A stretch of 64,000 bases of DNA, taken from contig PLLJ01000042.1 of the NCBI GenBank assembly GCA_003140935.1, positions 10,144-74,143 on the forward strand. Direction: 5' to 3'. Source of the stretch: Candidatus Omnitrophota bacterium (GTDB lineage: Bacteria; Omnitrophota; Omnitrophia; Omnitrophales; Aquincolibacteriaceae). Made by a program: the position numbers and the translations under genes. Below, in pieces: positions 3,729 to 47,684 of the stretch. Under the pieces are notes generated by a model. The model worked only from the letters and a program-made list of their open reading frames with translations. It had not been told where the DNA came from and did no database searches. Each line of letters starts with the position of its first letter. The first letter of the stretch is position 1.

Positions 3729-6700
3729 ATGAGTCTTCCGGAATTTTCGATCAAGAAGAAGGTCACTATTTACATGATGACCGCTCTTCTTGTTCTTGTG
3801 GGGGTTATTGCTTTTAGTCGTCTTCCTCAGGAACTTTTCCCACCGATTTCTTTTCCTCAGATCACCGTTGTTACCGAATATGCCAACGCGGCTCCCGAAG
3901 AGATCGAGACACTTCTCACCCGCATCATCGAAGAAGCCATCGGTTCCGTGGCCGGTTTAAAGCGCATTGAGTCTGTTTCTCGCGAAGGACGGAGTACGAT
4001 CACGGTCTCATTTAATTGGGGACAGGACATTGACTTCGCGGCTTTGGCGGTTCGTGAAAAGATCGATCTTATCAAGGAGCGTCTTCCTAAGGACGCCTCA
4101 GACCCCGTCGTTCTAAAATTCGACCCTCTTGCCAAGCCCGTGCTTATTCTTTCCGTGACAGGACAGGACCTTCCCGCTGTTCGTCTCAAGCTTTTAACGG
4201 AAAAAATGCTGAAAGATCGCTTAGAGAAAATCGAGGGTGTTGCTTCCGTGACCATTTCGGGGGGTGTGAGCCGGGAGATCCTCGTGGATATCGACCAGCC
4301 GCGTCTTCAAGCGAACCATCTTTCGCTTCTGGAGGTTATCGATTCTCTTGATCAGGCCAATGTGTCCTATCCGGCCGGGAGCATCAAAAAAGGCCTTTAT
4401 GAATATTTGATCCGGACGGTCGGAGATTTCCGTTCGCCGACCGAGATTGGGTTTTCTGTGGTGGGCGTGGATAATGTTGAAAAGGTTCGTCGTGAAGAAG
4501 CCAGTTTTATCGAACGGGATATTTCCGAAGGCCCCCGCAAAACCATTGAAAGGGATCGAGAAGAGGTTGAGAAAAAAATGCTTGAAAAACGGCTCGTGAC
4601 CGTCAATGACATCGGGAAAGTCATTGATGGCCTCGCCGAGAAGACCAGTGTTTCCCGCTATAACGGGGAACCCAACATTTCGGTGGCTATTCAAAAGCAA
4701 TCCAATGCCAACACCATCAAGTTGGTGGATAGGCTGAAAAAAGAATTACGAGGACTTCAGGAGGATTTCGCCTCGCGAGGCATTCAGTACAAGATCATTT
4801 ACGATCATTCGATTTTTATCCGCGAAAGTCTTGAAAATTTGGCCCATGAAGGGATCATGGGAAGTCTGTTCGCCCTAGGTTCGCTCTTCGCTTTTCTGAG
4901 GAACCTAGCCATGTCCTTATTGGTTGTACTTTCAATTCCTACCACCATTCTTGGCGTTTTTTTACTGATGGCCATGTCGGGAGTTACGCTCAATATGATG
5001 TCCTTGGGCGGGTTGGCGCTTGCTCTCGGCATCATTACCGACACCAGCATTGTAGTTCTGGAGAATATTTTCAGGAGACGACAGGGAGGCGAATCTTCCG
5101 AACAAGGGGCTGTTAAAGGTGCGGATGAAGTGGTCTGGCCTGTGGTTTCTTCCAATCTGACGGGTATTGCCGTTTTCTTTCCCCTGATCGTTTTTGTGCC
5201 GGGTGTGGCGGGGCAATTTTTTAAGGACTTATCGTGGGCCATGGTTTTCGCCCACATCTTTTGTATTTTTCTTCCTCTGACGCTGATCACCTTGCTTTCC
5301 ATTTATATTCGCGTTGAGGAAAAGGAATACAAACCGCTCAGTTTGACGGGGGGCTTAGATAAACACATCATGAGTCTTCCGACCCATGAAGCGCAAAACA
5401 AGACCATGATTGGGATTGTGATCGCGGTCTTCCTGACTCTGGCGTCCTCTTTTCTGATCGTACCGACCATGGATCGAGAGGTTCTTCCCAAAATGGATCA
5501 GGGGCAGTTTTACGCCAAGGTGGATATGCCGCTTGGGACCCGGTTGGAGGTAACGGACGAGTTTTGTCAGAAATTGGAAAAAATCATTAAGAGTGAGCCG
5601 GAGGTTAGAGATATCGATGTCGCGATAGGGAGTGAAAAAAGCACCAAAGGAGAAATTAAGGTTGAAACGCTCCGCGCCTCACAGGCTATGATCCTGGTGA
5701 GTTTGCAAGACAAAAGAAAGCGCACTTCTCCCCAGATCATCACATCCATCGCCAAGAAGATGAAGTCGCTTGATCTTGAAAGAAAGAGCATTCGCGTGGA
5801 TATTCAACTTCAAGGGAGCGAATTCGCCGCGGTGGGTTCTTCCATAAAGCCGATCATCTTGGAAGTGAAAGGCTACGATTTTAACACCATGGAAATGCTC
5901 GTATCGCGCCTAAAAACGTGGCTTGCGAAGATCCCTGGGATTATCAATATTGATAGTGATATCGGAGAAAAGTCTCCGGAAACAAAACTTGTGATCAATA
6001 AAAAACGCGCCGCACTTTACGGTATTTCTGCCATGGATGTTTCGCTGACGGCCAAGGCCGCCATCGAGGGCGTTGTTGCTACCCAGTATCGTGAGGCGGG
6101 CCGTGAAGTTGATGTTCGGGTTCGTCTGAACGAAAAAGACCGGTCCAATATCAGCCATCTCGATGATCTTCTCCTCTACTCGAAGACTTTGGACATTCAT
6201 GTCCCGCTCAAAGAGACCGCGATCGTTCAGCAAGGGGTCGGACCCAGCGAGATCAAACGTGTGGACCAGGAGCGGACGGTCACTGTCGCCGCGGAGATTG
6301 ACAACAGCCGTAAGGATAAAGATGTTCTCGCAGACCTTCAGAAGTTCCTGGCGGGATTGAAAACGCCGAACGATATTCCCGAAGATTTCCAGGTTCGTCT
6401 TTCCGGAAAGGCGAAGGAACTCAAGGAAAATTTTTCCGGCGTTGTTTTTGCCTTTATTTTAGCCATCATGCTTGTCTATATGATCATGGCCGCGCAATTC
6501 GAGTCGTTTATCCAGCCGTTTATCATTATGGTGACCGTACCTCTGTCTTTCGGGGGTGCCGTGATCGCCTTGAAACTAACGGGAAATTCCCTGAACGTTA
6601 TTTCGCTTTTAGGGTTGGTCCTTCTGGGCGGTGTGGTGGTCTATAACGGGATCGTCTTGATGGAATATACCAACCAGCTCCGCGCGGAAGGTATCGAGCT

Positions 6701-10138: not shown

Positions 10139-10735
10139 ATGGAGACGAAGGCGAACGAGCATGCTAAGACCACAAACCACCATACCAACAAACGCCAGGC
10201 GAAGAATCTCATCATTCATCGTCCTATGCAGCGGGAATTTTCTTTCATGTTGATCGCCCTTTTCATGGTGGCCTCGGCGGCGGTAGCCTGGGTCATTCAT
10301 CAAACGATCCGTGATGCGGCCTTCGGAGGGAACTTTACTTTCGGGAAGGTCAATCCCTCCGAAATTCTCTATGATGTGAGTTATTCGATCATCATTCGCG
10401 TGACCCTGGTGCTGATCCTCACGCTGATCATTATTGGCGCTTATGGCGTGGTTTTTCTCCACCGGGTGGCCGGCCCGGTTTACCGGTTCCGCCAGATCTT
10501 GCTGAAAGTGAATCGCGGAGAAATGCCCCAGGATATCAAACTTCGCGAGGGGGATTTTTTCCACGATATGGCCCATGATATCAATGTCATTTTGAAGCGC
10601 CTTCGCTCGGAACAAAGCAAGATCTCCGAGCTTAAGATCAAAATAAATGATTTTCAGAAAAGCGCATTACCGGAGGATGTTCGTCAGAAGGCGGAAGACA
10701 TGAAGACGGTCTTGGACTCCTTTTCAAAACTTTAA
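10139..10735 (+). CDS. Small membrane protein with two TM helices and a HAMP-like amphipathic linker region
   Basis: AAGGAG RBS 7 nt upstream of the ATG at 10139. Two hydrophobic helices are followed by AGPVYRFRQILLKVNRGEMPQDIKLREGDFFHDMAHDINVIL, which looks HAMP-like. No output domain. Confidence 0.45.
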   Translation: METKANEHAKTTNHHTNKRQAKNLIIHRPMQREFSFMLIALFMVASAAVAWVIHQTIRDAAFGGNFTFGKVNPSEILYDVSYSIIIRVTLVLILTLIIIGAYGVVFLHRVAGPVYRFRQILLKVNRGEMPQDIKLREGDFFHDMAHDINVILKRLRSEQSKISELKIKINDFQKSALPEDVRQKAEDMKTVLDSFSKL

Positions 10736-27292: not shown

Positions 27293-27365
27293 GCTGGTGT
27301 AGCTCAGGGGTAGAGCAGCTGTTTTGTAAACAGCGGGTCGGGGGTTCAAATCCCTCCACCAGCTC
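27293..27365 (+). tRNA. tRNA-Thr (anticodon UGU)
   Basis: Hand-folded cloverleaf: acceptor GCTGGTG/CACCAGC, D-arm GCTC-AGGGGTA-GAGC, anticodon stem GCTGT/ACAGC with loop TTTGTAA, T-arm GGGGG-TTCAAAT-CCCTC. Confidence 0.8.
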
Positions 27366-27475: not shown

Positions 27476-27559
27476 GGGGAGTTGCCCGAGCGGCCAAAGG
27501 GGACAGACTGTAAATCTGTTGGCTTATAGCCTTCAATGGTTCGAATCCATTACTCCCCA
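27476..27559 (+). tRNA. tRNA-Tyr (anticodon GUA), class II with a long variable arm
   Basis: Acceptor GGGGAGT/ACTCCCC. Anticodon stem ACAGA/TCTGT with loop CTGTAAA. Variable arm GGCTTATAGCC. T-arm AATGG-TTCGAAT-CCATT. Discriminator A. Confidence 0.75.
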
Positions 27560-35998: not shown

Positions 35999-38900
35999 AT
36001 GAGTCCTCGTCGCACCCAAAAGAGAATCAAGCGCGCCCGACAGATGCCCAGCCATTCCGGAGCAGCCTCCCTTCAAGCCTCGAAAAAGGTCCCTCAAAAA
36101 TTTCAATGGCGAACCCTCCGTCAGCAACGAACAAAGGGCATCCCTCTGGAAAGCGGGCTGGGCTGGAGAACTATTTTTGAGAATTCCCATGATGGTATTT
36201 TAATCGCGGATCTAGCCCGAAAAAAATTCTTGGATTGCAACAAAAAGATCACAAAGATGTTGAAATACTCCAAAGCGGAGATCCTCTCTTTATCCGTCAA
36301 AGACCTTCATCCGGCGAAGGGATTGAAACGTGCTCTGAAGGGGTTCCATCACTTGGCGAAGGGGCTGGCGTCGGTCGTGGTTGATATCCCGATGAAACGC
36401 AAGGACGGGAGTTCCTTTTACGCGGACATCAGCTGCGCGCGCGTGGAATTTTCCGGCCGTAAATATTTAGTCGGCTTTTTCCGCGATGTCAGCGAACGCA
36501 AAGGATCCGAAGAAGCGCTGATGGAAAGCGAGGAAATGTTCAGGACGTTCACGGAGCGGTCGCCTAACATGATCTTCATCAATCAGGGCGGAAAGGTCGT
36601 TTATGCGAATCCCAAGTGCGAAGAGATCATGGGATATAAACGCGAAGAATTCTATTCGCCGCGGTTCAGTTTTTTGACCCTTATGCACCCGGACGACGTT
36701 CCCGCGGTCCGGCGCAGTTTTTTCACGCACCAGAAAGGCAAAGAAGTCCCTCCCTACGAATACAAAATGCTCACCAAGGGCGGGAAACTGATCCGGGGTA
36801 TTTTGACGTCCAAACTTATCCACTATCGCGGTGCTCCGGCCATTTTGGGGATCATCACGGATATTTCCGATCGCAAAAAGGCGGAGGATGCGCTGCGCGA
36901 AAGTGAAAATCGTTTCCGGAAAATCATCGAACATTCGCCGATCGCGATGGCCATTGTCAGTACGGAGGGCGTGATCGAGTATATTAATCAGAAGGCCATC
37001 AAGGTTTTTGGCTACTTGCCTAAAGAGATCCCGACCATGGAAAGGTGGTGGGTTCAGGCTTATCCGGACAGAGATTACCGTAAGGAAGTTATTGCCGATT
37101 GGATGGGGCGCGTTCAACGGGGCATCGCGTCAGGCGGCGAAATCAAAGGTTCTGAATATCGGGTGACCTGCAAGGATCGCACTGTGAAGACGATGTTCAT
37201 CTCAGGGGCCTATATCGCCGGAAAGATATTCGTTTTGTTCGACGACATCACCGAGCGCTGGGAGGCAGCGGAGGCGCTGCGCGAAAGCGAGAAAAAATAC
37301 AAGCACCTGATCGAAACGACGGGGACGGGCTACGTGGCCCTCGATGAGTGGAGCCGGGTGACCGATGCCAACCCGGAATACGTACGGATGACCGGTCGTA
37401 AAAAGTTGAGCGAGATCTTGGGTCACAAGGTGCAGGAATGGACCGCTCCGTACGATCGCGAACGGAACAAACTTGAAGTGAAAAAATGTTTCAAGCGGGG
37501 TTTCGTGCGCAACCTTGAGGTCGACTACCAAACACCCGCCGGCCAGATTATCCCCATTGAGATCAACGCCACCGTGATCCGTGACGCCGGTCCTGTCCGG
37601 ATCGTGACGATATGCCGCGACATCACCAAGCGCAAGCGGGCGGAAACATCCTTGGCTCAACGTGAAGCCCATATTTCTGGCATCATCGAGAATCAGCCCG
37701 GGATGGTGTGGCTGAAGGATACGCATAGCCGGTTTCTTGTCGTCAATCAGAAATTTTCCGATGTCGCCGGAGGTAAAAACCCCACAAAAATGATCGGAAA
37801 AACGGATTTCGATTTTTGGCCGAAAGACCTTGCCCGAAGGTATCGGGCGGATGATAAAAGGGCCATGAGGACCGGAAAGTCACTCGTGGTGGAGGAACCT
37901 ATTTTAGACAGGGGCGTCCGGAAATGGCATGAGACTTTCAAGACACCGGTCGTGAATGAAAAGGGGCGTATCATCGGAACGACCGGTTATGCCCGGGACA
38001 TCACAGAGCGTAAGAGGACAGAAGCGGTGCTCAAGGAGAGCGAAGAAAAATTCCGCGCCATGTTCGAAACTTCTCCGAGCGGCATGGCTCTGTGCGAAAT
38101 GGATGGGACGCTAGTCCAGGTGAACCAGGCCTATCTGGACATCATCGGGTATACCCGTAAAGAAGCGTTAAAGCTGACTTACTGGGATCTGACGCCGAAG
38201 GAATATGCCGCGGGGGAAGCCCAACAGCTTCGTTCCATGGGAAAAACCGGGCGGTACGGTCCCTACGAGAAGGAATACATCCGTAAAACGGGGGAGCGGG
38301 TCCCGGTTTTGCTCAATGGAGCGGTCGTGACAGGGGTCGATGGCAAGAAACGTATCTGGTCGGTCGTTTTTGATATCACCGAACGCAAACGGGCGGAAGA
38401 AGCACTGAAACAATCTCTTTCTCTCCAAAACGCCACTTTGGAATCGACCGCGGACGGGATCCTTGTCGTGGATCGGGAGGGTAAGGTCGCGGATTTCAAC
38501 GAAAGATTCAAATACTTGTGGCGCATTCCCAAAAAGGTTCTTGCAACGCGTGATGACAAGAAACTGTTGCAGCTGGTTTTAAAACAATTGAAGACCTCCC
38601 CTCGTTTTCTTGCCCGCGTTCAGTGGTACTATGCCCATCCGCGGAAAAGTGGTTTTGATGTCCTGGAATTCAAGGACGGGAGGGTTTTTGAACGGGAAAC
38701 GCATCCGCAATGGGTGGAGAATAAACCCGTGGGGCGCGTGTGGAGCTTTCGCGATGTGACCGAGCGTAAGAAATCAGAAGAACTGCTCCGGAATACCGCC
38801 AAGGAGTGGCGTACCACGTTCAATGCGGTCGGCGATGCCGTGTGGCTCCTCAGTCTGGATGGGCGGATCCTTCAAACCAACAAAGCGGCTTCCAAAATGT

Positions 38901-40984
38901 TGGGAAAAAATACTGCTAGGATCCTCGGGCAATATTGCTGCGAAGTCATGCATAGTTCTAAAACGCCTCCTCCCGGATGTCCCCTGCGGCGTTTGCGGAA
39001 AAGCCTTCATCGCGAATCCTGGGAGACGTCGTTCTTGAACCGTTGGTTCCGGATCACGGTGGATCCCGTCTTGAACGAGCGGGGCGCCTTGATCGGGATT
39101 GTTCATATTGTCAGCGATATCACGGACCGTAAACGGGCGGACGAGGCGGTGATGAAGATCACCCGGTTCAACGAATCGATCATTAGCAGTTTGCCCGGCA
39201 TTTTTTATATTTTTAACAATCAAGGAAAATTTTTACGGGTCAATGAAAGGTTTTTGGAAGTCACGAAATACTCCCTGAAGCAGGTGTATAAAATGCATCC
39301 GTTTGATTTTTTCACCCAAAACGAAAAGGCGAAGGTCAAAGATACGATCGAGAAGGTCTTTGAAAAAGGCGAATCCTTTATCGAGGCCGATCTTTTGGGC
39401 AAAGATGGAAAAAAGACGCCTTTTTATTTCACGGGAGTCCGGGTTGTGATAGACGGGATTCCTCTCTTGGTGGGAGTGGGGATCGACGTTACCGAACGAA
39501 GAAGAGCGAAAGAAGCCGTCGTGGCCAGCGAACGCCGTCTTGCCCATTTGATGGCCGATCTTCCGGGCATGGTCTACCGGTGCAGGAACGAGCGGGATTG
39601 GCCCATATTTTTCGTCAGCGAAGGCTGTTTGCCGCTGACGGGGCACAGAAAAAAGGATTTTGAGTCCCACCGGGTCTTCTATAACGATCTCATCCACCGC
39701 GATGACCAGGAGCGTGTCTGGAACGCCGTGCAGGAAGCCCTAGCAGTAAAAAAATATTTCGAATTAACTTACCGGATCTGGACAAAAAAACACGAGGAAA
39801 AATGGGTTTGGGAACGCGGCCACGGTGTTTGGAACGATTCCGGTGAATTTATGTATCTTGACGGGTTCATCACCGACATCACCGCTCGCAAGCGAGCTGA
39901 GGACTTTCTCAGGGAACACCGGCATCAGTTACTCCAGGTCATTGATACGGTGCCGCATATGATATTCGCCGAGGATGGAAAAGGCCGGTTCTTGCTCGTG
40001 AATCGCGCGGTGGCCCAAGCGTACGGAAAGGAACCCAGAGACCTCATCGGGGTTCTGAGGCAGGACATGCATAAAGTTCGCGAAGAGGCCGAACATTTTT
40101 CGGCAAACGACAAGGAGGTTCTGGAGAGCGGTAAATCCAAGATCATTCCGGGGGAGATTTTCACGGACGTTCATGGGCGGAAGCATGTTCTCCAGACGAT
40201 CAAGATCCCGTTTAGGTTGGTGGGGGCAAAAGAGGATTGTATTTTGGGGGTGTCGGTGGACGTGACGGAGCAAAAAAAAGTCGAAGATTTCCGCAATGAG
40301 ATCATAAGGACCGTTTCCCATGAGCTCCGCACGCCGCTTTCGATCCAAAAAGAGGGTATCAGTCTACTTATGGATGAGATGGTAGGACCCATAAGTGTCG
40401 GACAAAAGGAGATCCTCGAAGCGGTCATGCGGAGCATCGATCGTTTGGCCCGCATGATCTCGAATCTTCTGGATGTTTCGAGTATCGAAACCCGAAAGAT
40501 CAAGTTCTTCCAAAAGATGACGAATTTGGAAGATCTTATAAAGGATGTGTTGCTCGAGTTTAAAAAGCGGGCATTCGAGAAGCATATCGATCTTAGCATG
40601 AAACCGTTGGGGAGCCCGGTCCGGGTTCTTATCGATCCGGACAAAATCACACAGGTTCTGAGCAATCTGGTGGATAATGCTATCAAGTTCACCCCGGAGG
40701 GAGGGACCGTGAAGATCTCTCTCGCTGTGCTAGAGAATGAATTGGAGTGCGAGGTCCGGGATAGCGGGATCGGGATCACTCCTGAGAATCTCGGCAAGGC
40801 GTTTGAAAAATTCCAACAATTTTCGCGGACGGACGGGCCGGGAGAAAAAGGGTTCGGGCTTGGGCTTTCGATCGCGAAGGGGATCATCGAATTGCATGGA
40901 GGCCGGATCTGGATAAAAAGCGAATTCGGCAAAGGGACGTGTGTGATGTTCTCATTACCGCTTTACCAAGGAAGACAGGGCTAA
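35999..40984 (+). CDS. Cytoplasmic multi-PAS sensor histidine kinase (about 10-11 tandem PAS/PAC domains, HisKA, HATPase_c), 1661 aa
   Basis: Repeated PAS cores followed by PAC boxes (ITERK / ITDRK / VTERK recur about 10 times). H-box VSHELRTPLS; N-box LVDNAIKFT; G-boxes DSGIGIT and GFGLGLSIAKG. No TM helices. Confidence 0.85.
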   Translation: MSPRRTQKRIKRARQMPSHSGAASLQASKKVPQKFQWRTLRQQRTKGIPLESGLGWRTIFENSHDGILIADLARKKFLDCNKKITKMLKYSKAEILSLSVKDLHPAKGLKRALKGFHHLAKGLASVVVDIPMKRKDGSSFYADISCARVEFSGRKYLVGFFRDVSERKGSEEALMESEEMFRTFTERSPNMIFINQGGKVVYANPKCEEIMGYKREEFYSPRFSFLTLMHPDDVPAVRRSFFTHQKGKEVPPYEYKMLTKGGKLIRGILTSKLIHYRGAPAILGIITDISDRKKAEDALRESENRFRKIIEHSPIAMAIVSTEGVIEYINQKAIKVFGYLPKEIPTMERWWVQAYPDRDYRKEVIADWMGRVQRGIASGGEIKGSEYRVTCKDRTVKTMFISGAYIAGKIFVLFDDITERWEAAEALRESEKKYKHLIETTGTGYVALDEWSRVTDANPEYVRMTGRKKLSEILGHKVQEWTAPYDRERNKLEVKKCFKRGFVRNLEVDYQTPAGQIIPIEINATVIRDAGPVRIVTICRDITKRKRAETSLAQREAHISGIIENQPGMVWLKDTHSRFLVVNQKFSDVAGGKNPTKMIGKTDFDFWPKDLARRYRADDKRAMRTGKSLVVEEPILDRGVRKWHETFKTPVVNEKGRIIGTTGYARDITERKRTEAVLKESEEKFRAMFETSPSGMALCEMDGTLVQVNQAYLDIIGYTRKEALKLTYWDLTPKEYAAGEAQQLRSMGKTGRYGPYEKEYIRKTGERVPVLLNGAVVTGVDGKKRIWSVVFDITERKRAEEALKQSLSLQNATLESTADGILVVDREGKVADFNERFKYLWRIPKKVLATRDDKKLLQLVLKQLKTSPRFLARVQWYYAHPRKSGFDVLEFKDGRVFERETHPQWVENKPVGRVWSFRDVTERKKSEELLRNTAKEWRTTFNAVGDAVWLLSLDGRILQTNKAASKMLGKNTARILGQYCCEVMHSSKTPPPGCPLRRLRKSLHRESWETSFLNRWFRITVDPVLNERGALIGIVHIVSDITDRKRADEAVMKITRFNESIISSLPGIFYIFNNQGKFLRVNERFLEVTKYSLKQVYKMHPFDFFTQNEKAKVKDTIEKVFEKGESFIEADLLGKDGKKTPFYFTGVRVVIDGIPLLVGVGIDVTERRRAKEAVVASERRLAHLMADLPGMVYRCRNERDWPIFFVSEGCLPLTGHRKKDFESHRVFYNDLIHRDDQERVWNAVQEALAVKKYFELTYRIWTKKHEEKWVWERGHGVWNDSGEFMYLDGFITDITARKRAEDFLREHRHQLLQVIDTVPHMIFAEDGKGRFLLVNRAVAQAYGKEPRDLIGVLRQDMHKVREEAEHFSANDKEVLESGKSKIIPGEIFTDVHGRKHVLQTIKIPFRLVGAKEDCILGVSVDVTEQKKVEDFRNEIIRTVSHELRTPLSIQKEGISLLMDEMVGPISVGQKEILEAVMRSIDRLARMISNLLDVSSIETRKIKFFQKMTNLEDLIKDVLLEFKKRAFEKHIDLSMKPLGSPVRVLIDPDKITQVLSNLVDNAIKFTPEGGTVKISLAVLENELECEVRDSGIGITPENLGKAFEKFQQFSRTDGPGEKGFGLGLSIAKGIIELHGGRIWIKSEFGKGTCVMFSLPLYQGRQG

Positions 40985-40988
40985 GGCC

Positions 40989-41366
40989 ATGCCTGAGGAA
41001 AAAAGAAAGATCCTTTTTGTCGATGATGAACCGGACCAGATCCTGATGATCTCCCTCAGGCTGCAGAAAAGCGGTTATGCGGTCGTCTCCGCCGCGGATG
41101 GAGAAGAGGGTTTGAAGAAAGCCTTTGAAGAAAAGCCCGCTCTTATTCTGTTGGACATGCTCATGCCAGGCATAGACGGTTTTGAGGTTTGTCGCCGGCT
41201 TCGTAAAAATCCCGTCACAAAAAACATTCCGGTCATCGCCACCACGGCGGCGGGCGTCGACGACATCGAATTCCAGTGCCGTGCGGCCGGGGCCGACGAT
41301 TGCATCCGGAAACCCTACGATTCCGCAGACCTTCTCACGAAAATCCGCCAACTGCTTAAGGCATGA
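40989..41366 (+). CDS. Single-domain response regulator (receiver only)
   Basis: ILFVDDEPD ... LILLDMLMPGIDG ... VIATTA ... K. Starts 5 nt after the kinase stop. Confidence 0.85.
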   Translation: MPEEKRKILFVDDEPDQILMISLRLQKSGYAVVSAADGEEGLKKAFEEKPALILLDMLMPGIDGFEVCRRLRKNPVTKNIPVIATTAAGVDDIEFQCRAAGADDCIRKPYDSADLLTKIRQLLKA

Positions 41367-41403: not shown

Positions 41404-42120
41404 GTGAGATCGTTGAACAGCAAACAGATCATTGATGCCTTGACTAAGATCAGCGATGCGGTCATTTCGGACCTGTATTTGGAAGAGATCCTTAAATTGA
41501 TCGTGACGGTGACCGCAGAGGTCATGCATTCCAAGATATGTTCCCTCATGCTCCTGGAAAAGTCCACCAATGAGCTAGTCGTCAAAGCGACCCAATCCGT
41601 CAGTGAGTTCTATAACAAAAAACCCAACGCAAAGCTCGGGGAAGGCATCGCCGGAAGGGCGGCCCAGCTTGGAGAACCGATCACCGTTCTTGATGTGCGG
41701 AAGGACAAACGCTATCTCAATCAAGCGATCGCCAAAAAAGAGAACCTTTGTTCTCTCTTAAGCATGCCGCTTATTTACAAGGGAAATGTCATCGGAGTGC
41801 TGAACTGTTATACGGCCAAGCCGCGTCCCTTTAGCCCAAACGAGATACGCGTCATCAAATCGATCGCGAACCAGGCCGCGATCGTCATTGAGAACTTCCG
41901 GTTGGTCGTAGAATCGCAAGTGATCCAGGAAGAACTGGAATCAAGGAAGGCGATTGAGCGCGCCAAAGGCATTTTGATGAAAAGGGAGAACTTAAGCGAA
42001 CAGGGGGCTTATAAGCTCATCCGTAAGTACAGCATGGATAAACGGAAGAGCATGAGGGAGGTCTCGGAGGCCATCCTTTTAAGCGCGGAGATGCAGAGAT
42101 TTTCATCCGGCAAAGAATGA
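41404..42120 (+). CDS. GAF-ANTAR protein (RNA-binding antiterminator with a GAF sensor domain); probable GTG start
   Basis: The GAF region (IVTVTAEVMHSKICSLMLLEK...NCYTAKPRPFSPNEIRVIKSIANQAAIVIEN) is followed by an ANTAR signature (ESRKAIERAKGILMKRENLSEQGAYKLIRKYSMDKRKSMREVSEAIL). The track ORF starts further upstream, inside the receiver gene in a different frame; GTG at 41404 follows a GGGAAAGG RBS. Confidence 0.75.
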   Translation: MRSLNSKQIIDALTKISDAVISDLYLEEILKLIVTVTAEVMHSKICSLMLLEKSTNELVVKATQSVSEFYNKKPNAKLGEGIAGRAAQLGEPITVLDVRKDKRYLNQAIAKKENLCSLLSMPLIYKGNVIGVLNCYTAKPRPFSPNEIRVIKSIANQAAIVIENFRLVVESQVIQEELESRKAIERAKGILMKRENLSEQGAYKLIRKYSMDKRKSMREVSEAILLSAEMQRFSSGKE

Positions 42121-42128
42121 GATTAGGA

Positions 42129-42156
42129 TTGGCAATCAGAATTTCCGTGCTATAAT
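42129..42156 (+). promoter_or_regulatory. Sigma-70-like promoter TTGGCA-N16-TATAAT for the gdhA leader
   Basis: Hexamers read directly, with 16-nt spacing. Confidence 0.45.
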
Positions 42157-42166
42157 CCCACTGCTG

Positions 42167-42209
42167 AACACAAAGTGAGTGTTTGGTGGAAAGAAAGCGA
42201 AGCGGCGCT
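42167..42209 (+). promoter_or_regulatory. Candidate ANTAR dual-hairpin target: P1 AACAC-[AAAGTGA]-GTGTT and P2 AGCG-[AAGCGG]-CGCT, with P2 overlapping the 5' arm of the leader terminator
   Basis: Two small stem-loops 12 nt apart with A-initiated loops. The 3' half of P2 (GCGCT) lies inside the terminator stem GGCGCTC. Confidence 0.45.
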
Positions 42210-42230
42210 CTGAGAAGAGCGCCTTTTTTG
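42204..42230 (+). terminator. Intrinsic terminator within the gdhA 5' leader (attenuator)
   Basis: ggcgctc-tgagaa-gagcgcc followed by ttttttg, about 150 nt upstream of the gdhA start. Confidence 0.6.
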
Positions 42231-42377
42231 TTTCAGTCCAGCAACACAGGATAAAGACGTCCTTCTTGGCAGGAGTTTTTGCCGGGAAGGATTTTTTTTT
42301 GGCAAAAGTGCTTTAGCACCGTAAACCAGGGGCGGGGACATTTGGGTCCTCAAAACATCAAAAAAGGGGTGAAAACA

Positions 42378-43742
42378 ATGGCAAAAACAGGGGAAAGTTC
42401 AGCGGAAAAAGAGATCAACGCGTTCATGAAAAAAGTGAGTGCCAGAAATCCCGGTGAAAAGGAATTTCTTCAAGCGGTCCGGGAAGTGGTGGATTCCGTA
42501 ACGCCTTTTATCGAAAAACACCCCAGGTATAGAAATGCGAAGATCCTGGAAAGAATGGTCGAGCCGGAGCGTGTGATCATGTTCCGGGTTCCCTGGCTTG
42601 ATGACAAGGGAGAGATCCAGATCAATCGTGGTTTCCGTATTCAGATGAACAGCGCGATCGGTCCCTACAAGGGCGGTATTCGCCTTCACCCGAGTGTCAA
42701 TCTCGGCATCCTGAAGTTTTTAGCGTTCGAACAAGTGTTCAAGAACAGCCTCACCACGCTGCCCATGGGCGGGGCGAAGGGCGGTTCAGATTTTGATCCC
42801 AAAGGGAAATCCGATAACGAGGTCATGAAGTTCTGTCAGAGTTTCATGCTGGAGCTCTCCCGTCATATCGGACCGGATACGGACGTTCCGGCCGGCGATA
42901 TCGGCGTGGGTGGCCGCGAGATCGGTTTTATGTTCGGCCAGTACAAGAGAATCCGTAATGAATTCACCGGCGTTCTGACCGGAAAGGCCCTGAGTTGGGG
43001 TGGCAGTCTTATCCGTCCCGAGGCCACCGGCTATGGCTGCGTTTATTTCGTCGAAGAAATGATGAAGACGAGAAAAATGTCCCTGGCAGGGAAGACCTGC
43101 GTTGTTTCCGGTTCGGGGAACGTCGCGCAGTATACCGTGGAAAAACTTAATGAGCTTGGCGCCAAAGTCGTCACCTTGTCGGATTCGGACGGTTACATCT
43201 ATGACAAAAAAGGCATTGACGCGAAAAAATTGCAGTTCGTCATGGAGCTCAAAAACGTAAAGCGCGGACGCATCAAGGAGTATGCGGACGAATTCGGCTG
43301 CGAATATGTGGCCGGTCAAAGACCGTGGAAAGTCGAGTGCGATGTGGCTTTTCCGAGCGCCACGCAGAACGAGATCAGCGGGAACGACGCAAAGGCCCTC
43401 GTCAAGAACGGTTGTATCGCGATCGGCGAAGGCGCCAACATGCCGACCACGCCGGAAGGCATCGAAGTATTCCAGAAGGCAAAGATCCTCTATGCCCCCG
43501 GCAAGGCGGCGAATGCCGGCGGGGTAGCGACTTCGGGTCTGGAAATGAGCCAGAACAGCATGAGGCTTCGCTGGTCCCGCAAGGAAGTCGATGAAAAACT
43601 GCACGGGATCATGGTCTCGATCCACGAGAGCTGCGTGAAATACGGCAAGGAAGACGCGAAGTATATCAACTACGTCAACGGCGCCAACATCGCGGGGTTC
43701 GTGAAAGTTGCGGATGCCATGATTGATCAAGGCTTGGTCTAG
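42378..43742 (+). CDS. gdhA: NADP-specific glutamate dehydrogenase
   Basis: The Glu/Leu/Phe/Val dehydrogenase active-site region (LPMGGAKGGSDFDPKGKSDNEV) and a Rossmann GSGNVAQY. RBS GGGGTGA before the ATG at 42378. The track ORF begins earlier, in the leader. Confidence 0.9.
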   Translation: MAKTGESSAEKEINAFMKKVSARNPGEKEFLQAVREVVDSVTPFIEKHPRYRNAKILERMVEPERVIMFRVPWLDDKGEIQINRGFRIQMNSAIGPYKGGIRLHPSVNLGILKFLAFEQVFKNSLTTLPMGGAKGGSDFDPKGKSDNEVMKFCQSFMLELSRHIGPDTDVPAGDIGVGGREIGFMFGQYKRIRNEFTGVLTGKALSWGGSLIRPEATGYGCVYFVEEMMKTRKMSLAGKTCVVSGSGNVAQYTVEKLNELGAKVVTLSDSDGYIYDKKGIDAKKLQFVMELKNVKRGRIKEYADEFGCEYVAGQRPWKVECDVAFPSATQNEISGNDAKALVKNGCIAIGEGANMPTTPEGIEVFQKAKILYAPGKAANAGGVATSGLEMSQNSMRLRWSRKEVDEKLHGIMVSIHESCVKYGKEDAKYINYVNGANIAGFVKVADAMIDQGLV

Positions 43743-43764
43743 GACCGGGACGTAGTTCTAAGGG

Positions 43765-43793
43765 CAGGGCCCCTTTTGGGGCCCTGTTTTTTT
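43765..43793 (+). terminator. Rho-independent terminator after gdhA
   Basis: cagggcccc-tttt-ggggccctg followed by ttttttt. Confidence 0.75.
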
Positions 43794-43796
43794 AGG

Positions 43797-43825
43797 TTGA
43801 CAAATGATACAAGAACGGTATCATT
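43797..43825 (+). promoter_or_regulatory. TTGACA -35 hexamer followed by the perfect inverted repeat AATGATAC-N7-GTATCATT (which contains TATCAT), immediately upstream of the Rrf2 gene; a candidate autoregulatory operator
   Basis: An 8-bp perfect palindrome arm read directly. The -10-like TATCAT sits 6-7 nt from the ATG at 43831, implying a leaderless or very short-leader transcript. Confidence 0.4.
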
Positions 43826-43830
43826 ACGCG

Positions 43831-44292
43831 ATGAAACTTATCACACGCAACACCGATTACGCGATGCGCGCCCTTTGTTATATCGCAGGACAGAGTAAAA
43901 CGTCCGTGTCTGCCGAAGAAATGGTAACGCGACTCAAGATCCCGAGGCCTTTTTTAAGGAAGATCCTCCAGATTTTAAGCGGCGAAGGTTTATTGAAGTC
44001 CACCAAAGGACAGGGAGGCGGGTTCTCTTTAGCTTGTTCCAAGGAGAAAGTTCTTCTGACGGACTTGATACGGATCTTTCAAAATACGATCCAATTGAAC
44101 GAATGTGTTTTCAAGAAAAAAACATGTCCCAACCGGAGCACCTGTATGTTGAAGAAGAAAATCGATTCCATCGAGCGAGACGTATTCAAAAGGCTTCGCG
44201 GGATATCGATCGCCTCTTTGATACATGACGGGAACGGTTCGCGTTCGCATCCGAAGGGAAAATGTCATGGCCATTCTGCAAGCCGCCACTGA
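43831..44292 (+). CDS. Rrf2-family transcriptional regulator (NsrR/IscR-like)
   Basis: An N-terminal winged-helix region (MKLITRNTDYAMRALCYIAGQ...) typical of Rrf2, and Cys residues in the C-terminal half. 154 aa. Confidence 0.75.
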   Translation: MKLITRNTDYAMRALCYIAGQSKTSVSAEEMVTRLKIPRPFLRKILQILSGEGLLKSTKGQGGGFSLACSKEKVLLTDLIRIFQNTIQLNECVFKKKTCPNRSTCMLKKKIDSIERDVFKRLRGISIASLIHDGNGSRSHPKGKCHGHSASRH

Positions 44293-46006
44293 AACGAGGT
44301 TCAAAGGGTTGCCGCTCAGTCCCGGGGTCGCGGTGGCGCGGGTGTGTCTTTTTAATGAAAAGCGCCATACGAGTCTTTCCGTCACGAATGTTACGGACAA
44401 AGAGGTTCGGAGTGAAGGCGAACGTTTCAGAAAAGCCTTGTCTTTCGTCCGGGAAAAGCTGACCCAGCTTATCAGGGAGGTAAAAGAACGCGTCGGGAAG
44501 GCTGAGGCCGAGATCTTTACGGCACAAAAAATGATCCTCGAAGATCCTGCGCTGATCCAAAGGGTGGCCGACCATATCCGCAGCAAGAACTTTAACGCCG
44601 AAAAGGCCGTGATCAGCTCGCTCGACTTTTTTGAGGAACAGCTGGCCGAGAAGGATAATGCTTATGTCCGGGAACGCGCGGCGGACATCAGTGAAGTGAA
44701 ACGCCGGCTGCTCGATGCGCTTGCCAATCTGAATCCTTCATTCCAATGTGAAAGTGATTCTTTCTGTCAAAAGGGGAAGAATCGGATCGTGATCGCCCAG
44801 GAGCTTACTCCGAGCTTGACCATGGAACTCAATACCGATTCTATCCGAGGATTTGTGACCGACCGCGGGGGCGTGGCTTCGCATGCTGCGATCCTGGCAC
44901 GTGCTCTCGGGATTCCGGCCGTAAGCGGTATTCCGGGGATCCACGATATGATCTTCTGCGGGACGGAGGTACTTGTCAACGGGGGTACCGGAGAGGTCGT
45001 GATATGGCCGAATAAAAATACGCTTGCGGAATATCCGGATCTTCAACGGGGGATCGCAGAAGAAATTCCCGTCGTGGAACCCGTCACCGGACTTAAGGTG
45101 TTCGCCAACTTGAGTCTCGCGAAAAAAGTGAAGGAGGCCGTGGATCATAAAGCGGAAGGGATCGGACTTTACCGGACGGAGTTTGAATTTTTTGCGGCAG
45201 GGAAGGTTCTCTGTGAAATGGAACAATACGATCTTTATCGCGAGGTCCTGAAAGCCATGAAAGACAAACCGGTCTATTTCAGAATGCTCGACCTGGGCGG
45301 TGACAAGACCGCGGATTTTTTTAAATTTCCAAAGGAACAAAATCCCGCGCTGGGCCTCCGCGGAAGTCGTCTCCTCTTGGGACATCCCGAACTTTTCAGG
45401 AATCAGGCACGGGCCTTGGCCCGTGCATCCCGGTACGGCCGCGTTCATGTGATGTATCCCATGGTGATCGATATTGAGCAATTCCGGAGACTGAAAAAGG
45501 CCTTCGGGGAAGCGAGCGCGGATATCCCGCAGGGCGAGATCAAGCATGGACTCATGTTTGAAGTCCCGTCGGCATGTCTCGATGCGGAAGAGATCCTGAA
45601 AGAGGCGGATTTTGGCAGTGTTGGCACGAACGATCTGATCCAGTATCTGTTCGCCGTGGATCGTGATAATGAATTCGTCGCATACGACCATCATCCGGAC
45701 CGCAAGATCTTCTGGCACCTTATTCACCATGTCGCGCATGCTGCCAAAAAACACCGCAAGCCGCTTTCGGTCTGCGGAGAATTGGCGGCCAATCCTGTGT
45801 ATGCGAGAAAATTGATCGCAGAGGGGATCCGCGCGGTCAGTGTGGCACCGCGGGCCATTACGGGCTTGAGGATCGCGATCAAGAACAAACCGAAGCTCGC
45901 CAAGAAAAGGGCTTTGAAGCTGTTCAACGGGAAAAAGAAGCGAACCGTGAACGCGGATCCTTCATTGAAAAATAGAAATAAAAAAACAACAAAAAGGAGA
46001 AAATAA
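44267..46006 (+). CDS. ptsI: PEP-utilising Enzyme I homologue (phosphoenolpyruvate-protein phosphotransferase-like) with a Lys-rich C-terminal tail
   Basis: The phospho-His region (GGVASHAAILARALGIPAVSG) and the PEP-binding TIM-barrel motifs GLYRTEFEFF and GTNDLIQY. No HPr or EII genes nearby. The tail is ...KKRALKLFNGKKKRTVNADPSLKNRNKKTTKRRK. Confidence 0.75.
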   Translation: MAILQAATETRFKGLPLSPGVAVARVCLFNEKRHTSLSVTNVTDKEVRSEGERFRKALSFVREKLTQLIREVKERVGKAEAEIFTAQKMILEDPALIQRVADHIRSKNFNAEKAVISSLDFFEEQLAEKDNAYVRERAADISEVKRRLLDALANLNPSFQCESDSFCQKGKNRIVIAQELTPSLTMELNTDSIRGFVTDRGGVASHAAILARALGIPAVSGIPGIHDMIFCGTEVLVNGGTGEVVIWPNKNTLAEYPDLQRGIAEEIPVVEPVTGLKVFANLSLAKKVKEAVDHKAEGIGLYRTEFEFFAAGKVLCEMEQYDLYREVLKAMKDKPVYFRMLDLGGDKTADFFKFPKEQNPALGLRGSRLLLGHPELFRNQARALARASRYGRVHVMYPMVIDIEQFRRLKKAFGEASADIPQGEIKHGLMFEVPSACLDAEEILKEADFGSVGTNDLIQYLFAVDRDNEFVAYDHHPDRKIFWHLIHHVAHAAKKHRKPLSVCGELAANPVYARKLIAEGIRAVSVAPRAITGLRIAIKNKPKLAKKRALKLFNGKKKRTVNADPSLKNRNKKTTKRRK

Positions 46007-46007
46007 A

Positions 46008-47684
46008 ATGGGCATGTTTTGCTATCAGTGCGAACAGACAGCCAAAGGAAAAGGCTGCGATGTGAAGGGTGTATGCGGTAAAACGCCGGAGGTGGCGGCG
46101 CTTCAGGATCTCTTGGTCCATGTGGCAAAAGGGATCGCGATCTATGGGCAAAGGATCCGCGAGATGGGTCTGAAGGATAACGAAGCGGATCTCTTTTTGA
46201 TCGAGGCGCTTTTTACCACGGTCACGAATGTGGATTTTGATCCTGAAAGGATCCAGGAGGCGTTGCTCCGGGGTTTTAAGATTAAAGAGAAGATCAGAAA
46301 TCTTTTCCATAATATCTATAAGAAAAAAAATCGCCGCGATTTTGACGGTGAACTTCCGGCGGCGGCCTACTGGATGCCCGCGGCCAATTTGGCGGGTCTT
46401 GTGGAACAAGGGAGCAAAGTCGGCATTCTCTCCGATAAAACTCTCAATGAGGACATCCGGAGCCTTCGCGAACTTCTGCTCTACGGGCTCAAGGGAATGG
46501 CGGCTTATGCGGATCATGCGCATGTGCTGGGCAGGCAGGATGAGGAGGTGACCGCGTTCTTCTACAAAGGTTTGTGCGCGCTCACGGACCATCGTCTGAC
46601 TGTGAACGATCTTGTGGACCTGAACATGAAGTTCGGGATGGTCAATCTCAAATGCCTGGAACTTTTGGATAAGGCGCACACGGATCATTTTGGGCATCCG
46701 GTGCCGACGCGCGTGTCGCTCGGAGTGAAAAAAGGTCCCGCGATCCTCGTGTCCGGCCATGATCTTCTGGACCTGGAACAACTTCTTCAGCAGACGGAAG
46801 GTCAAGGGATCAATATTTACACGCATGGCGAGATGTTGCCGGCGCACGGGTATCCGGGGCTTAAAAAATACGAGCACCTTGTCGCGAATTACGGCGGCGC
46901 GTGGCAGGATCAAGCCAAGGAATTCGACGTTTTTCCGGGAGCGATCCTGATGACCACCAATTGCATTCAGCAGCCGCGCGAAAGTTACAAGAGCCGGATC
47001 TTCACGACGGGTCTTGTGGCGTGGTCGGGAGTGCAACACATTGGACAGCTCAATGGACGAAAAGATTTTTCCCCCGTCATCGCGAAAGCGATCGAGACCG
47101 GCGGTTTTCTGCAGGATATCCCCGCGAAGAATATCGTGGTGGGGTTTGGCCACAACGCGGTGCTGGGTGTCGCGGACAAGGTCATCGACGCGGTGAAAGC
47201 CGGAAAGATCAAACATTTGTTCCTCGTGGGAGGATGTGATGGCGCGAAGCCCGGAAGGAACTACTACACGGATTTTGCCACGGAGGCGCCTAAGGATACG
47301 GTCATCCTGACACTTGCTTGCGGCAAATACCGGTTCAACAAACTCGAGTTCGGGGATATCGGCGGCATTCCGAGACTTCTCGATATGGGGCAGTGCAATG
47401 ATGCTTACTCCGCGATCCGGGTAGCCGTCGCTCTTGCGAAGGCTCTCGAGTGCGGCGTGAACGATCTGCCGCTTTCGATGATCCTTTCTTGGTACGAACA
47501 AAAGGCGGTCTGTATCCTCTTGACGCTTTTGGCGCTGAGGATCCAGAACATCCGCATTGGCCCCTCACTTCCCGCTTTTGTGAGTCCCAACGTGTTGAAC
47601 GTGCTTGTCTCAAAGTTCAATATCAAGCCCGTGACCACGGCCAAAGAGGACCTTGCTGCGATCCTCGGGACCGTGAAAGTCTGA
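46008..47684 (+). CDS. hcp: Hydroxylamine reductase / hybrid-cluster protein
   Basis: N-terminal Cys cluster MFCYQCEQTAKGKGCDVKGVCGK. 558 aa with conserved hybrid-cluster ligands. The ATG is 1 nt after the Enzyme I stop. Confidence 0.9.
   Translation: MGMFCYQCEQTAKGKGCDVKGVCGKTPEVAALQDLLVHVAKGIAIYGQRIREMGLKDNEADLFLIEALFTTVTNVDFDPERIQEALLRGFKIKEKIRNLFHNIYKKKNRRDFDGELPAAAYWMPAANLAGLVEQGSKVGILSDKTLNEDIRSLRELLLYGLKGMAAYADHAHVLGRQDEEVTAFFYKGLCALTDHRLTVNDLVDLNMKFGMVNLKCLELLDKAHTDHFGHPVPTRVSLGVKKGPAILVSGHDLLDLEQLLQQTEGQGINIYTHGEMLPAHGYPGLKKYEHLVANYGGAWQDQAKEFDVFPGAILMTTNCIQQPRESYKSRIFTTGLVAWSGVQHIGQLNGRKDFSPVIAKAIETGGFLQDIPAKNIVVGFGHNAVLGVADKVIDAVKAGKIKHLFLVGGCDGAKPGRNYYTDFATEAPKDTVILTLACGKYRFNKLEFGDIGGIPRLLDMGQCNDAYSAIRVAVALAKALECGVNDLPLSMILSWYEQKAVCILLTLLALRIQNIRIGPSLPAFVSPNVLNVLVSKFNIKPVTTAKEDLAAILGTVKV

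Follow-up and report, generated by a model that had tools for sequence, protein, structure and literature searches.

ANTAR-domain antiterminators are widespread, and their established way of defeating an intrinsic terminator is to keep the terminator stem from reaching the U tract. Antitermination by ANTAR proteins is known, and so is its connection with nitrogen genes, the nitrogen theme of ANTAR regulons having been described previously (PMC3369931). The RNA target is a pair of small hairpins, for which Ramesh et al. 2012 (Figures S1/S2) give the consensus SYAC-AAHGRH-GUDB for the first (P1) and RRGY-AAHGDV-GCYY for the second (P2), and EutV requires a linker of 5-12 nucleotides (nt) between the two, an additional 20 nt abolishing antitermination. 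For one-component ANTAR proteins, a paper of 2020 (PMC7496416) gives NasR, which senses nitrate, and PAL, which senses light, as the only ones characterised, and full-text searches brought up no later case. The combination of a GAF sensor with an ANTAR domain is very common and has neither a known ligand nor a known RNA target; a full-text search of the literature found no characterised GAF-ANTAR protein, and Ramesh et al. 2012 say likewise (PMC3369931). Glutamate dehydrogenase is absent from the reported ANTAR targets, including those in the supplementary tables of Ramesh et al. 2012, no ANTAR control of its gene, gdhA, was found in the literature searched, and in Geobacter it is GnfM and sigma-54, not antitermination, that control gdhA. 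Here we describe a GAF-ANTAR gene and a candidate RNA target directly downstream of it, in front of gdhA, in a 64,000-nt stretch of DNA from a Candidatus Omnitrophota bacterium (assembly GCA_003140935.1, contig PLLJ01000042.1, forward strand, positions 10,144 to 74,143), referred to below as the window and numbered from its first letter.

The GAF-ANTAR stop codon ends at 42120 and the gdhA ATG begins at 42378, leaving a gap of 257 nt, and public gene calls on identical contigs likewise give products of 238 and 454 amino acids with 257 nt between them. A first-pass annotation, made from the letters of the sequence, had proposed that this gap of 257 nt carries a promoter, two stem-loops and one terminator through which the adjacent GAF-ANTAR protein controls gdhA by antitermination. 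Its inventory of the gap holds: the promoter TTGGCA-N16-TATAAT is present at 42129-42156, the two stem-loops lie 12 nt apart at 42167-42183 and 42196-42209, the terminator GGCGCTC-tgagaa-GAGCGCC-TTTTTT, placed about 150 nt before gdhA, sits 149 nt before its ATG, the second hairpin shares sequence with the 5' arm of that terminator (GGCGCT, where GCGCT had been given), and the loops fit the A1/G4 hexaloop consensus only in part, the first being 7 nt long and the second lacking G4. The general idea of gdhA antitermination has also fared well, since the arrangement recurs in 19 of 19 syntenic loci and canonical leaders precede gdhA in other lineages. The anatomy has to be redrawn, as the first hairpin was correctly placed, the second hairpin and its terminator prove to be the weaker half, and an invariant hairpin and a conserved second terminator 40-70 nt downstream had been missed. 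From comparison among related leaders we propose that the GAF-ANTAR protein probably (at a probability of about 0.75) controls gdhA through the gap next to its gene, which would act as a transcription attenuator of the ANTAR type with two units in tandem. The parts of this attenuator, all on the forward strand and with the two genes that flank them, are predicted as follows:

41404-42120, forward strand: gene of the GAF-ANTAR one-component regulator, 238 amino acids, GTG start
42129-42156, forward strand: sigma-70-type promoter, with −35 box TTGGCA at 42129-42134, a 16-nt spacer with TG extension, and −10 box TATAAT at 42151-42156
42161-42189, forward strand: hairpin P1 (hairpin 1), with a core of 8 base pairs (bp) at 42164-42171 / 42179-42186 and a 7-nt loop AAAGUGA at 42172-42178, in which G4 is 42175
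42196-42209, forward strand: hairpin P2a (hairpin 2), AGCG-AAGCGG-CGCU, −3.3 kcal/mol, 12 nt past hairpin 1
42204-42229, forward strand: first intrinsic terminator, T1, with stem GGCGCTC-TGAGAA-GAGCGCC at 42204-42223 and U6 at 42224-42229
42249-42262, forward strand: hairpin P2, a canonical ANTAR-type hexaloop hairpin, GGAU-AAAGAC-GUCC, whose 3' arm GUCC (42259-42262) also forms the opening 4 nt of T2
42259-42300, forward strand: second intrinsic terminator, T2, with a stem of 15 pairs (42259-42292) and, at its 3' end, a T9 run (42292-42300)
42378-43742, forward strand: gdhA, NADP-specific glutamate dehydrogenase, 454 amino acids, Pfam ELFV_dehydrog_N and ELFV_dehydrog

In the mechanism that we propose, the conserved sigma-70 promoter would start transcription a few bases 5' of P1. 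By default the RNA would form T1 and then, in transcripts that pass it, the very stable T2, so that little gdhA mRNA would be made; default termination is predicted because the small hairpins are far weaker than the terminators that they overlap (P2 at −2.0 versus T2 at −20.8 kcal/mol, hairpin 2 at −3.3 versus T1 at −15.0 kcal/mol). A GAF-ANTAR dimer in its RNA-binding state would hold P1 together with the small hairpin overlapping the 5' arm of each terminator, P2a countering T1 and the canonical hexaloop P2 countering T2. With P2 held, T2 would lose four basal pairs, its stem would end short of the U tract and polymerase would read through into gdhA; when P2 was forced in folding, the remaining T2 stem did stop 4 nt short of the U tract. 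The GAF domain would sense a nitrogen-status metabolite and thereby gate RNA binding. What the sequences show is the elements, the way in which they are conserved and covary, their likeness to published ANTAR targets and the recurrent linkage of this GAF-ANTAR clade to such leaders on gdhA and further nitrogen genes; we infer the binding of protein to RNA, the hairpin partner of P2, termination at T1, the ligand and the sign of the ligand effect.

The evidence that carries this proposal comes from related loci. A profile of the regulator retrieved 80 loci from species-representative genomes, with gdhA lying 3' of the regulator on the same strand in 22 of the 80, upstream on the opposite strand in L049, L052 and L057, and upstream on the same strand in L022. 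The window and 19 syntenic close relatives, with regulators 75-92% identical, provided an alignment of 20 leaders, in which the order promoter, leader, gdhA is kept in all 19 relatives and the promoter, P1, P2 and T2 are conserved in 20/20. The promoter matches the consensus at 11 of 12 positions in a consensus scan, and its general form, TTGnnA-16/17-(TG)nTAnAAT, is present throughout the alignment, even where about 115-120 nt extra separate the stop codon from the −35 box (L011, L016 and L017); from its position, transcription is expected to start at about 42162-42165. The extra DNA is a near-identical insert of about 120 nt in two of these loci (L011:2418-2540 and L016:4718-4840), with GC-rich inverted repeats (CCCGCCG-GGCGGG and CGCCC...GGGCG) that make it resemble a small mobile or repeat element.

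For this alignment RNAalifold returns a consensus of two helices and no more, P1 with 8 bp and T2 with 13 bp. These are paired in 92.6-95% of cases compared with 37-49% when the 3' partners were slid, and none of 500 column shuffles attained the observed pairing or covariation. Hairpin 1, first recognised as AACAC[AAAGTGA]GTGTT at 42167-42183, can be extended to a stem of 11 bp that spans 42161-42189, with an energy of −10.3 kcal/mol. It is paired in 90% of cells across the 20 leaders, with compensatory double changes at six pairs, and its loop is 7 nt long in 20/20, with G4 in 20/20 and A1 in 17/20; 6-nt P1 loops occur in some of the more distant relatives (L028, L035, L041 and L049). The leader as a whole is more stably folded than shuffled sequence (z = −4.2).

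The second module is the more constrained of the two. P2 is the only exact match to its pattern in the 64 kb of the window and its stem is kept in 20/20 leaders, the sole change, from U.G to U-A, being found in L003 and in L009, where the T2 pair that corresponds to it is preserved as well. In its loop G4 is invariant (20/20) and position 1 is A in 16/20, the others having G as in the published GAUGAA loops. A single loop base separates it from the P2 of Klebsiella oxytoca nasF, GGAUAAAGGCGUCC (GGAU-AAAGGC-GUCC), and in L002 and L026 the two are identical. Although T2 does not include the 5' half of P2, this half is invariant, and therefore a function besides termination is called for. T2 is paired in 99% of cells across the relatives, with compensatory changes, and insertions into it are confined to the apical loop (L009, L011). 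Both insertions (L009:4871-4900 and L011:2700-2725) are additional GC-rich hairpins that sit precisely in that loop, with the stem intact. P1 and P2 are separated by about 59 nt, with the T1 hairpin within, and by 17 nt in L010 and L017; P2 may work together with P1 over the intervening T1 domain, pair with a different hairpin or act by itself. A partner hairpin just 5' of P2, of the kind seen in distant relatives (UCUUUC-AGAGUUA-GAAAGA in L022), was considered and set aside, the window's lineage having no conserved equivalent. A possible sigma-54 promoter within T2 (TGGCA...TTGCC, against TGGCAC-N5-TTGC) was rejected too, as its spacing is one base off in the window and varies from 0 to more than 20 nt in relatives.

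The first module has the textbook geometry and the poorer conservation. P2a lies 12 nt from P1 when the short stems are measured and 6 nt from the extended P1, within the 5-12 nt range of eut, and it shares 6 nt (GGCGCT, 42204-42209) with T1, an 8-bp stem with six G-C pairs followed by U6 (−15.0 kcal/mol). P2a is paired in 82% of cells over the 20 leaders, 10 of 17 retain its inner pair, and its 6-nt loop has A1 and, at position 4, C rather than G, so that it was rejected as a canonical hexaloop for its missing G4 and weak conservation. T1 is paired in 72% of cells in relatives, and in a scan of the 20 leaders sequence by sequence just two (the window and L011) have a strong T1, five have a moderate one and 13 a weak one or none; T1 was judged in this way because RNAalifold, run on an alignment of mixed module-1 sequences whose T1 3' arms MAFFT had misaligned, recovered P1 only. 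Across the 19 relatives, in which promoter, P1, P2 and T2 are all kept, hairpin 2 and T1 are eroded or absent in most. The T1 segment is closed off by a GAAA/UUUC helix (42193-42196 / 42231-42234) that shows 93% pairing in relatives, which indicates that P1 and P2 are separated, wherever the segment is present, by a domain that folds on its own. In L010 and L017 the whole segment is missing, and P1 is joined to P2 by the 17 nt already mentioned.

These observations bear on the alternative that only P1, the 12-nt linker and hairpin 2 with T1 form the switch, T2 being a constitutive terminator or insulator and the GGAUAAAGACGUCC hairpin incidental. The canonical spacing speaks for such an arrangement, as do the alignment of P1 and hairpin 2 by the model of published targets described below and the homology of module 1 to a clear first attenuator in distant relatives. 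It would make the switch out of the half that erodes, in which hairpin 2 lacks G4 and T1 is so often weak or absent, and pass over both an invariant P2 that is nearly identical to the NasR target and a T2 paired almost without exception. The two relatives without module 1 keep P1, P2 and T2, and a constitutive terminator of 15 bp and U9 just 5' of gdhA would silence the gene. We regard this alternative as unlikely, and the tandem attenuator remains the better account of the leader.

More distant relatives show what the tandem arrangement looks like when both units are intact. In L020-L023, L045, L048 and L077 the promoter is followed, in order, by a P1 with a 7-nt loop and by GAAC-AAAGUAGC-GUUC (A1, G4) over a first terminator; a second terminator is then overlapped by GGAU-AAAGAC-GUCC in L020-L023, L045 and L048, and the second hairpin of L077 is GGAC-AAUGGC-GUUC. 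A third attenuator unit is found in some. P1, hairpin 2 and T1 of the window align with the first of these units, P2a being homologous to the GAAC-AAAGUAGC-GUUC hairpin and T1 to the first terminator, and P2 and T2 align with the second; the leader is therefore read as a tandem attenuator. By this comparison the first unit is apparently decaying in the window's lineage, and the second appears to be under strong constraint.

In three of the distant loci the attenuator leads into another GAF-ANTAR gene (from L020:1864, L021:4898 and L022:5098 onward), a second paralogue with about 60% identity to the first, which suggests autoregulation or a cascade of regulators. The apical loop of the second terminator holds an ANTAR-like hairpin, UAGC-AAAGUCU-GCUA (A1, G4), at L020:1838-1852 and L023:4702-4716, and the third attenuator unit could use this hairpin as its upstream partner.

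Agreement with published ANTAR targets is partial in the window and clear in its relatives. The P1 of the window, ACAC-AAAGUGA-GUGU, fits the consensus in its closing pairs CAC/GUG and the first four loop bases, with one extra loop nucleotide. Of two published features of dual-hairpin targets, a 6-nt loop in both stem-loops is found in P2 and hairpin 2 and not in P1, with its 7 nt, and overlap of the second hairpin with the terminator 5' arm occurs twice, between hairpin 2 and T1 (42204-42209) and between P2 and T2 (42259-42262). We built a covariance model (R1) from 28 published ANTAR hits and nasF and scanned the window with filters off. P1 with hairpin 2 (42168-42210) ranks first in the window, weakly so at 10.6 bits, its expectation value (E) being 0.81 for the full 64 kb and 0.003 when the search is restricted to the leader; the search of the leader alone also returned a partial, P2-only hit at 42248-42262 (5.1 bits). 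In relatives R1 reaches 24-30 bits (E 7e-5 to 3e-3 over 560 kb). Among the 80 loci it is significant directly past the regulator gene in L028 (30.4 bits), L035 (29.0 bits), L070 and L076, and it hits the leaders of the divergent gdhA genes in L049 (Desulfuromonadales), L052 and L057 at 24-27 bits, each hit being followed by a terminator that overlaps P2.

The first-pass annotation had advised a look for further copies of the module elsewhere in the genome, for example upstream of amtB or glnA. The 64-kb window holds none, the one near-match, at 6314, lying inside a long open reading frame (ORF), and R1 gave no second credible site there; the same hairpins do stand 5' of such genes in relatives, namely those for glutamine synthetase in L041, the ammonium transporter in L048, PII in L039 and glutamate-synthase-like (gltB-like) proteins in L036, L062 and L070, in keeping with the nitrogen theme described for ANTAR regulons (PMC3369931). 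Attenuators of the same type also occur past the regulator in L024, L028 and L037, and at L053:6074, 5' of a gene for a small NuoE-like thioredoxin-fold [2Fe-2S] protein identified by eye.

The regulator itself has the expected equipment. Pfam recognises GAF_2 at residues 26-163 (E 8e-23) and ANTAR (PF03861) at residues 174-225 (E 2.7e-21), the latter covering profile positions 3-54 of 54 and hence forming a complete C-terminal domain, which matches in sequence the ANTAR regions of EutV (6wsh), Rv1626 (1s8n) and NasR (4akk). The AlphaFold monomer (predicted local distance difference test score, pLDDT, 85) has a GAF fold, a continuous helix from 145 to 195 that runs into the ANTAR helices, and two more helices towards the C terminus (199-213, 217-234). 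Sequence (3trc, 3ci6, NF008283) and fold agree in placing the GAF domain nearest to those of PtsP (EI-Ntr), with NifA-type GAFs (TIGR01817) next. EI-Ntr's GAF domain binds glutamine (PMC4848567) and senses nitrogen status, and since these nearest kin are of the PtsP and NifA type, glutamine and 2-oxoglutarate, both named in the first-pass annotation, are plausible ligands; by this analysis a nitrogen-status metabolite, glutamine and/or 2-oxoglutarate, is the most likely one. The kin differ in output, which is a phosphotransferase or an AAA+ activator and not an RNA-binding domain, and at an identity of only 22-27% their ligand is not confidently transferable to the regulator.

That the GAF-ANTAR neighbour operates the leader is suggested by association. 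Within 400 nt past the regulator stop (77 loci), P1-type patterns are enriched 44-fold and P2-type patterns 25-fold, and the P2-type hairpins in that zone overlap a terminator in 38 of 38 cases. A different ANTAR protein, such as a receiver-ANTAR response regulator encoded elsewhere, might serve the leader instead, with the neighbour a bystander: the motif is one that ANTAR domains share, a genome may hold several ANTAR genes (PMC3369931, PMC7496416), genes for a histidine kinase and for a receiver-only protein lie just upstream, and our view extends over 64 kb of this genome. Against it stand the enrichment just given and the fact that the motif adjoins this GAF-ANTAR clade in three arrangements (gdhA downstream, gdhA divergent, other nitrogen genes downstream) and in several phyla; the window encodes no other ANTAR domain. 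We therefore hold a bystander role to be improbable and continue to assign the leader to the adjacent regulator.

Very unlikely, in our judgement, is a reading without any regulation, in which T1 and T2 merely end an operon of kinase, receiver and GAF-ANTAR genes, gdhA has its promoter further downstream and the small hairpins are products of chance. Terminators past a stop codon are ordinary enough, and T1 and T2 follow that of the GAF-ANTAR gene by 84 and 139 nt. Yet a near-consensus promoter lies between stop codon and terminators in every one of the 20 leaders, and a consensus scan found no promoter-like site between T2 and gdhA, the sigma-54-like TGGCA...TTGC in T2 being of variable spacing. 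The P1 stem covaries, the 5' arm of P2 is invariant outside T2, and the same type of leader precedes divergent gdhA genes, where operon termination cannot apply. The least likely account, a metabolite riboswitch or leader-peptide attenuator in place of a protein-operated one, would suit a structured 5' leader with terminators before a gene of amino-acid metabolism and meets no Rfam 15 family in that leader (a scan of the whole window at gathering thresholds placed none there, and a permissive scan of 42050-42450 to E 10 gave nothing better than E 1.2), conserved parts that are two tiny hairpins with conserved loop bases and no ligand pocket, and, as sole leader ORFs, two of 23 and 45 amino acids with non-ATG starts inside P1 and no obvious upstream ribosome-binding site.

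Several points weigh against the tandem attenuator as we have drawn it. The match of the window to the published ANTAR model is weak window-wide (E 0.81), the P1 loop has 7 nt in place of 6, and loop position 4 of P2a is C and not G. The roughly 59 nt from P1 to P2, or 17 nt where T1 is missing, exceed the EutV limit of 5-12 nt. The P2 stem is invariant and never covaries, so that its support is sequence conservation and not covariation. If T1 is efficient, few transcripts would reach P2 and T2, and P2a would be a poor ANTAR hairpin with which to prevent that. A cAMP-binding GAF domain, like some others, scores nearly as well in the fold search, similarity thus not discriminating between ligands. 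Finally, the host is an uncultured Omnitrophota bacterium, and the case is built on sequence comparison. The comparative signal survives the weak points (the linker, T1 and the window score), which hold our confidence at about 0.75.

GdhA scores 783 bits against NCBIfam NF006929 (NADP-specific glutamate dehydrogenase), for which the cut-off is 536, and further features on the same strand are:

35999-40984, forward strand: histidine kinase, 1661 amino acids, many PAS-family domain matches in Pfam
40989-41366, forward strand: receiver-only protein, upstream of the GAF-ANTAR gene
42364-42371, forward strand: ribosome-binding site AAGGGGUG, 6 nt 5' of the gdhA ATG, kept in most relatives

The receiver gene and the GAF-ANTAR start are 37 nt apart, with no predicted terminator in that gap, and the trio of kinase, receiver and GAF-ANTAR genes is kept in the closest relatives and not in more distant ones. 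Past gdhA the forward strand continues with genes for an Rrf2 regulator (43804-44292), a PtsI/PtsP-like enzyme I (44225-46006, its ORF overlapping that of Rrf2 by 68 nt) and a hybrid-cluster protein (46008-47684), and the order of Rrf2 and PtsI-like genes, or of Rrf2 and hybrid-cluster protein genes, recurs among close relatives. A terminator-like hairpin with a T run follows gdhA at 43755-43782, and directly after it comes a near-consensus promoter, TTGACA-16-TATCAT (43797-43824), 5' of the Rrf2 gene. Enzyme I, two genes past gdhA, aligns to PtsP from residue 158 on and so is without the N-terminal GAF domain that defines EI-Ntr; the GAF domain most like that of PtsP is carried by the ANTAR protein instead of by this nearby enzyme. 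Two tRNA genes, at 27293-27364 and 27476-27559, are the sole matches in the window at Rfam gathering scores.

With this leader, glutamate dehydrogenase joins the genes predicted to be under ANTAR control. The locus and its relatives offer a clean cognate set of one regulator gene, one conserved leader, one enzyme gene and a short list of candidate ligands, and the trio of regulator, RNA and enzyme can be tested in vitro even though the host is uncultured. They also offer natural variation in the RNA target, with a 7-nt P1 loop, tandem terminators and a long spacing from P1 to P2. More tentatively, the whole GAF-ANTAR clade could constitute a self-contained nitrogen switch that does without PII/NtrBC, in which a PtsP/NifA-type GAF domain would read glutamine and/or 2-oxoglutarate and drive gdhA, glnA, gltB-like, amtB and glnB genes in Omnitrophota and other anaerobes via tandem attenuators, one recruitment hairpin with a 7-nt loop serving two terminators across an intervening hairpin. 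We consider this possible and still doubtful; if true, it would provide the first defined ligand-RNA pair for a large subclass of GAF-ANTAR proteins and would relax the strict rule for inter-hairpin spacing derived from EutV.

Of the described systems, NasR and its nasF leader in Klebsiella oxytoca (NIT-ANTAR) resemble the locus in pairing a one-component sensor-ANTAR protein with a promoter-proximal leader that carries two small hairpins and an intrinsic terminator before a nitrogen assimilation gene. NasR differs in its sensor, a NIT domain binding nitrate or nitrite where the present protein has a GAF domain, and in its target, the nas operon as compared with gdhA; the nasF leader is a single attenuator with a 9-nt linker and two hexaloops, whereas in the gdhA leader there are two terminators, the P1 loop has 7 nt and P1 lies far from P2. 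EutV/EutW of Enterococcus faecalis (receiver-ANTAR) share with it the dual A1/G4 hairpins, a P2 over the 5' arm of the terminator and several attenuators per regulator, and the eut P1 consensus xCAC-AAnGnn-GUGx resembles the ACAC-AAAGUGA-GUGU of the window. EutV is activated by kinase phosphorylation and not by a fused ligand sensor, depends on a strict linker of 5-12 nt and acts on targets in ethanolamine utilisation. The published ANTAR nitrogen regulators, namely those of the regulons predicted in Desulfotomaculum and Pelobacter (Ramesh et al. 2012) and the GnfK/GnfR system of Geobacter, differ in being receiver-ANTAR proteins. Their ANTAR units stand before genes for glutamine synthetase, glutamate synthase, PII and ammonium transporters, sometimes several to a transcription unit, and these are the same target genes that we find behind such leaders in relatives of the gdhA locus.

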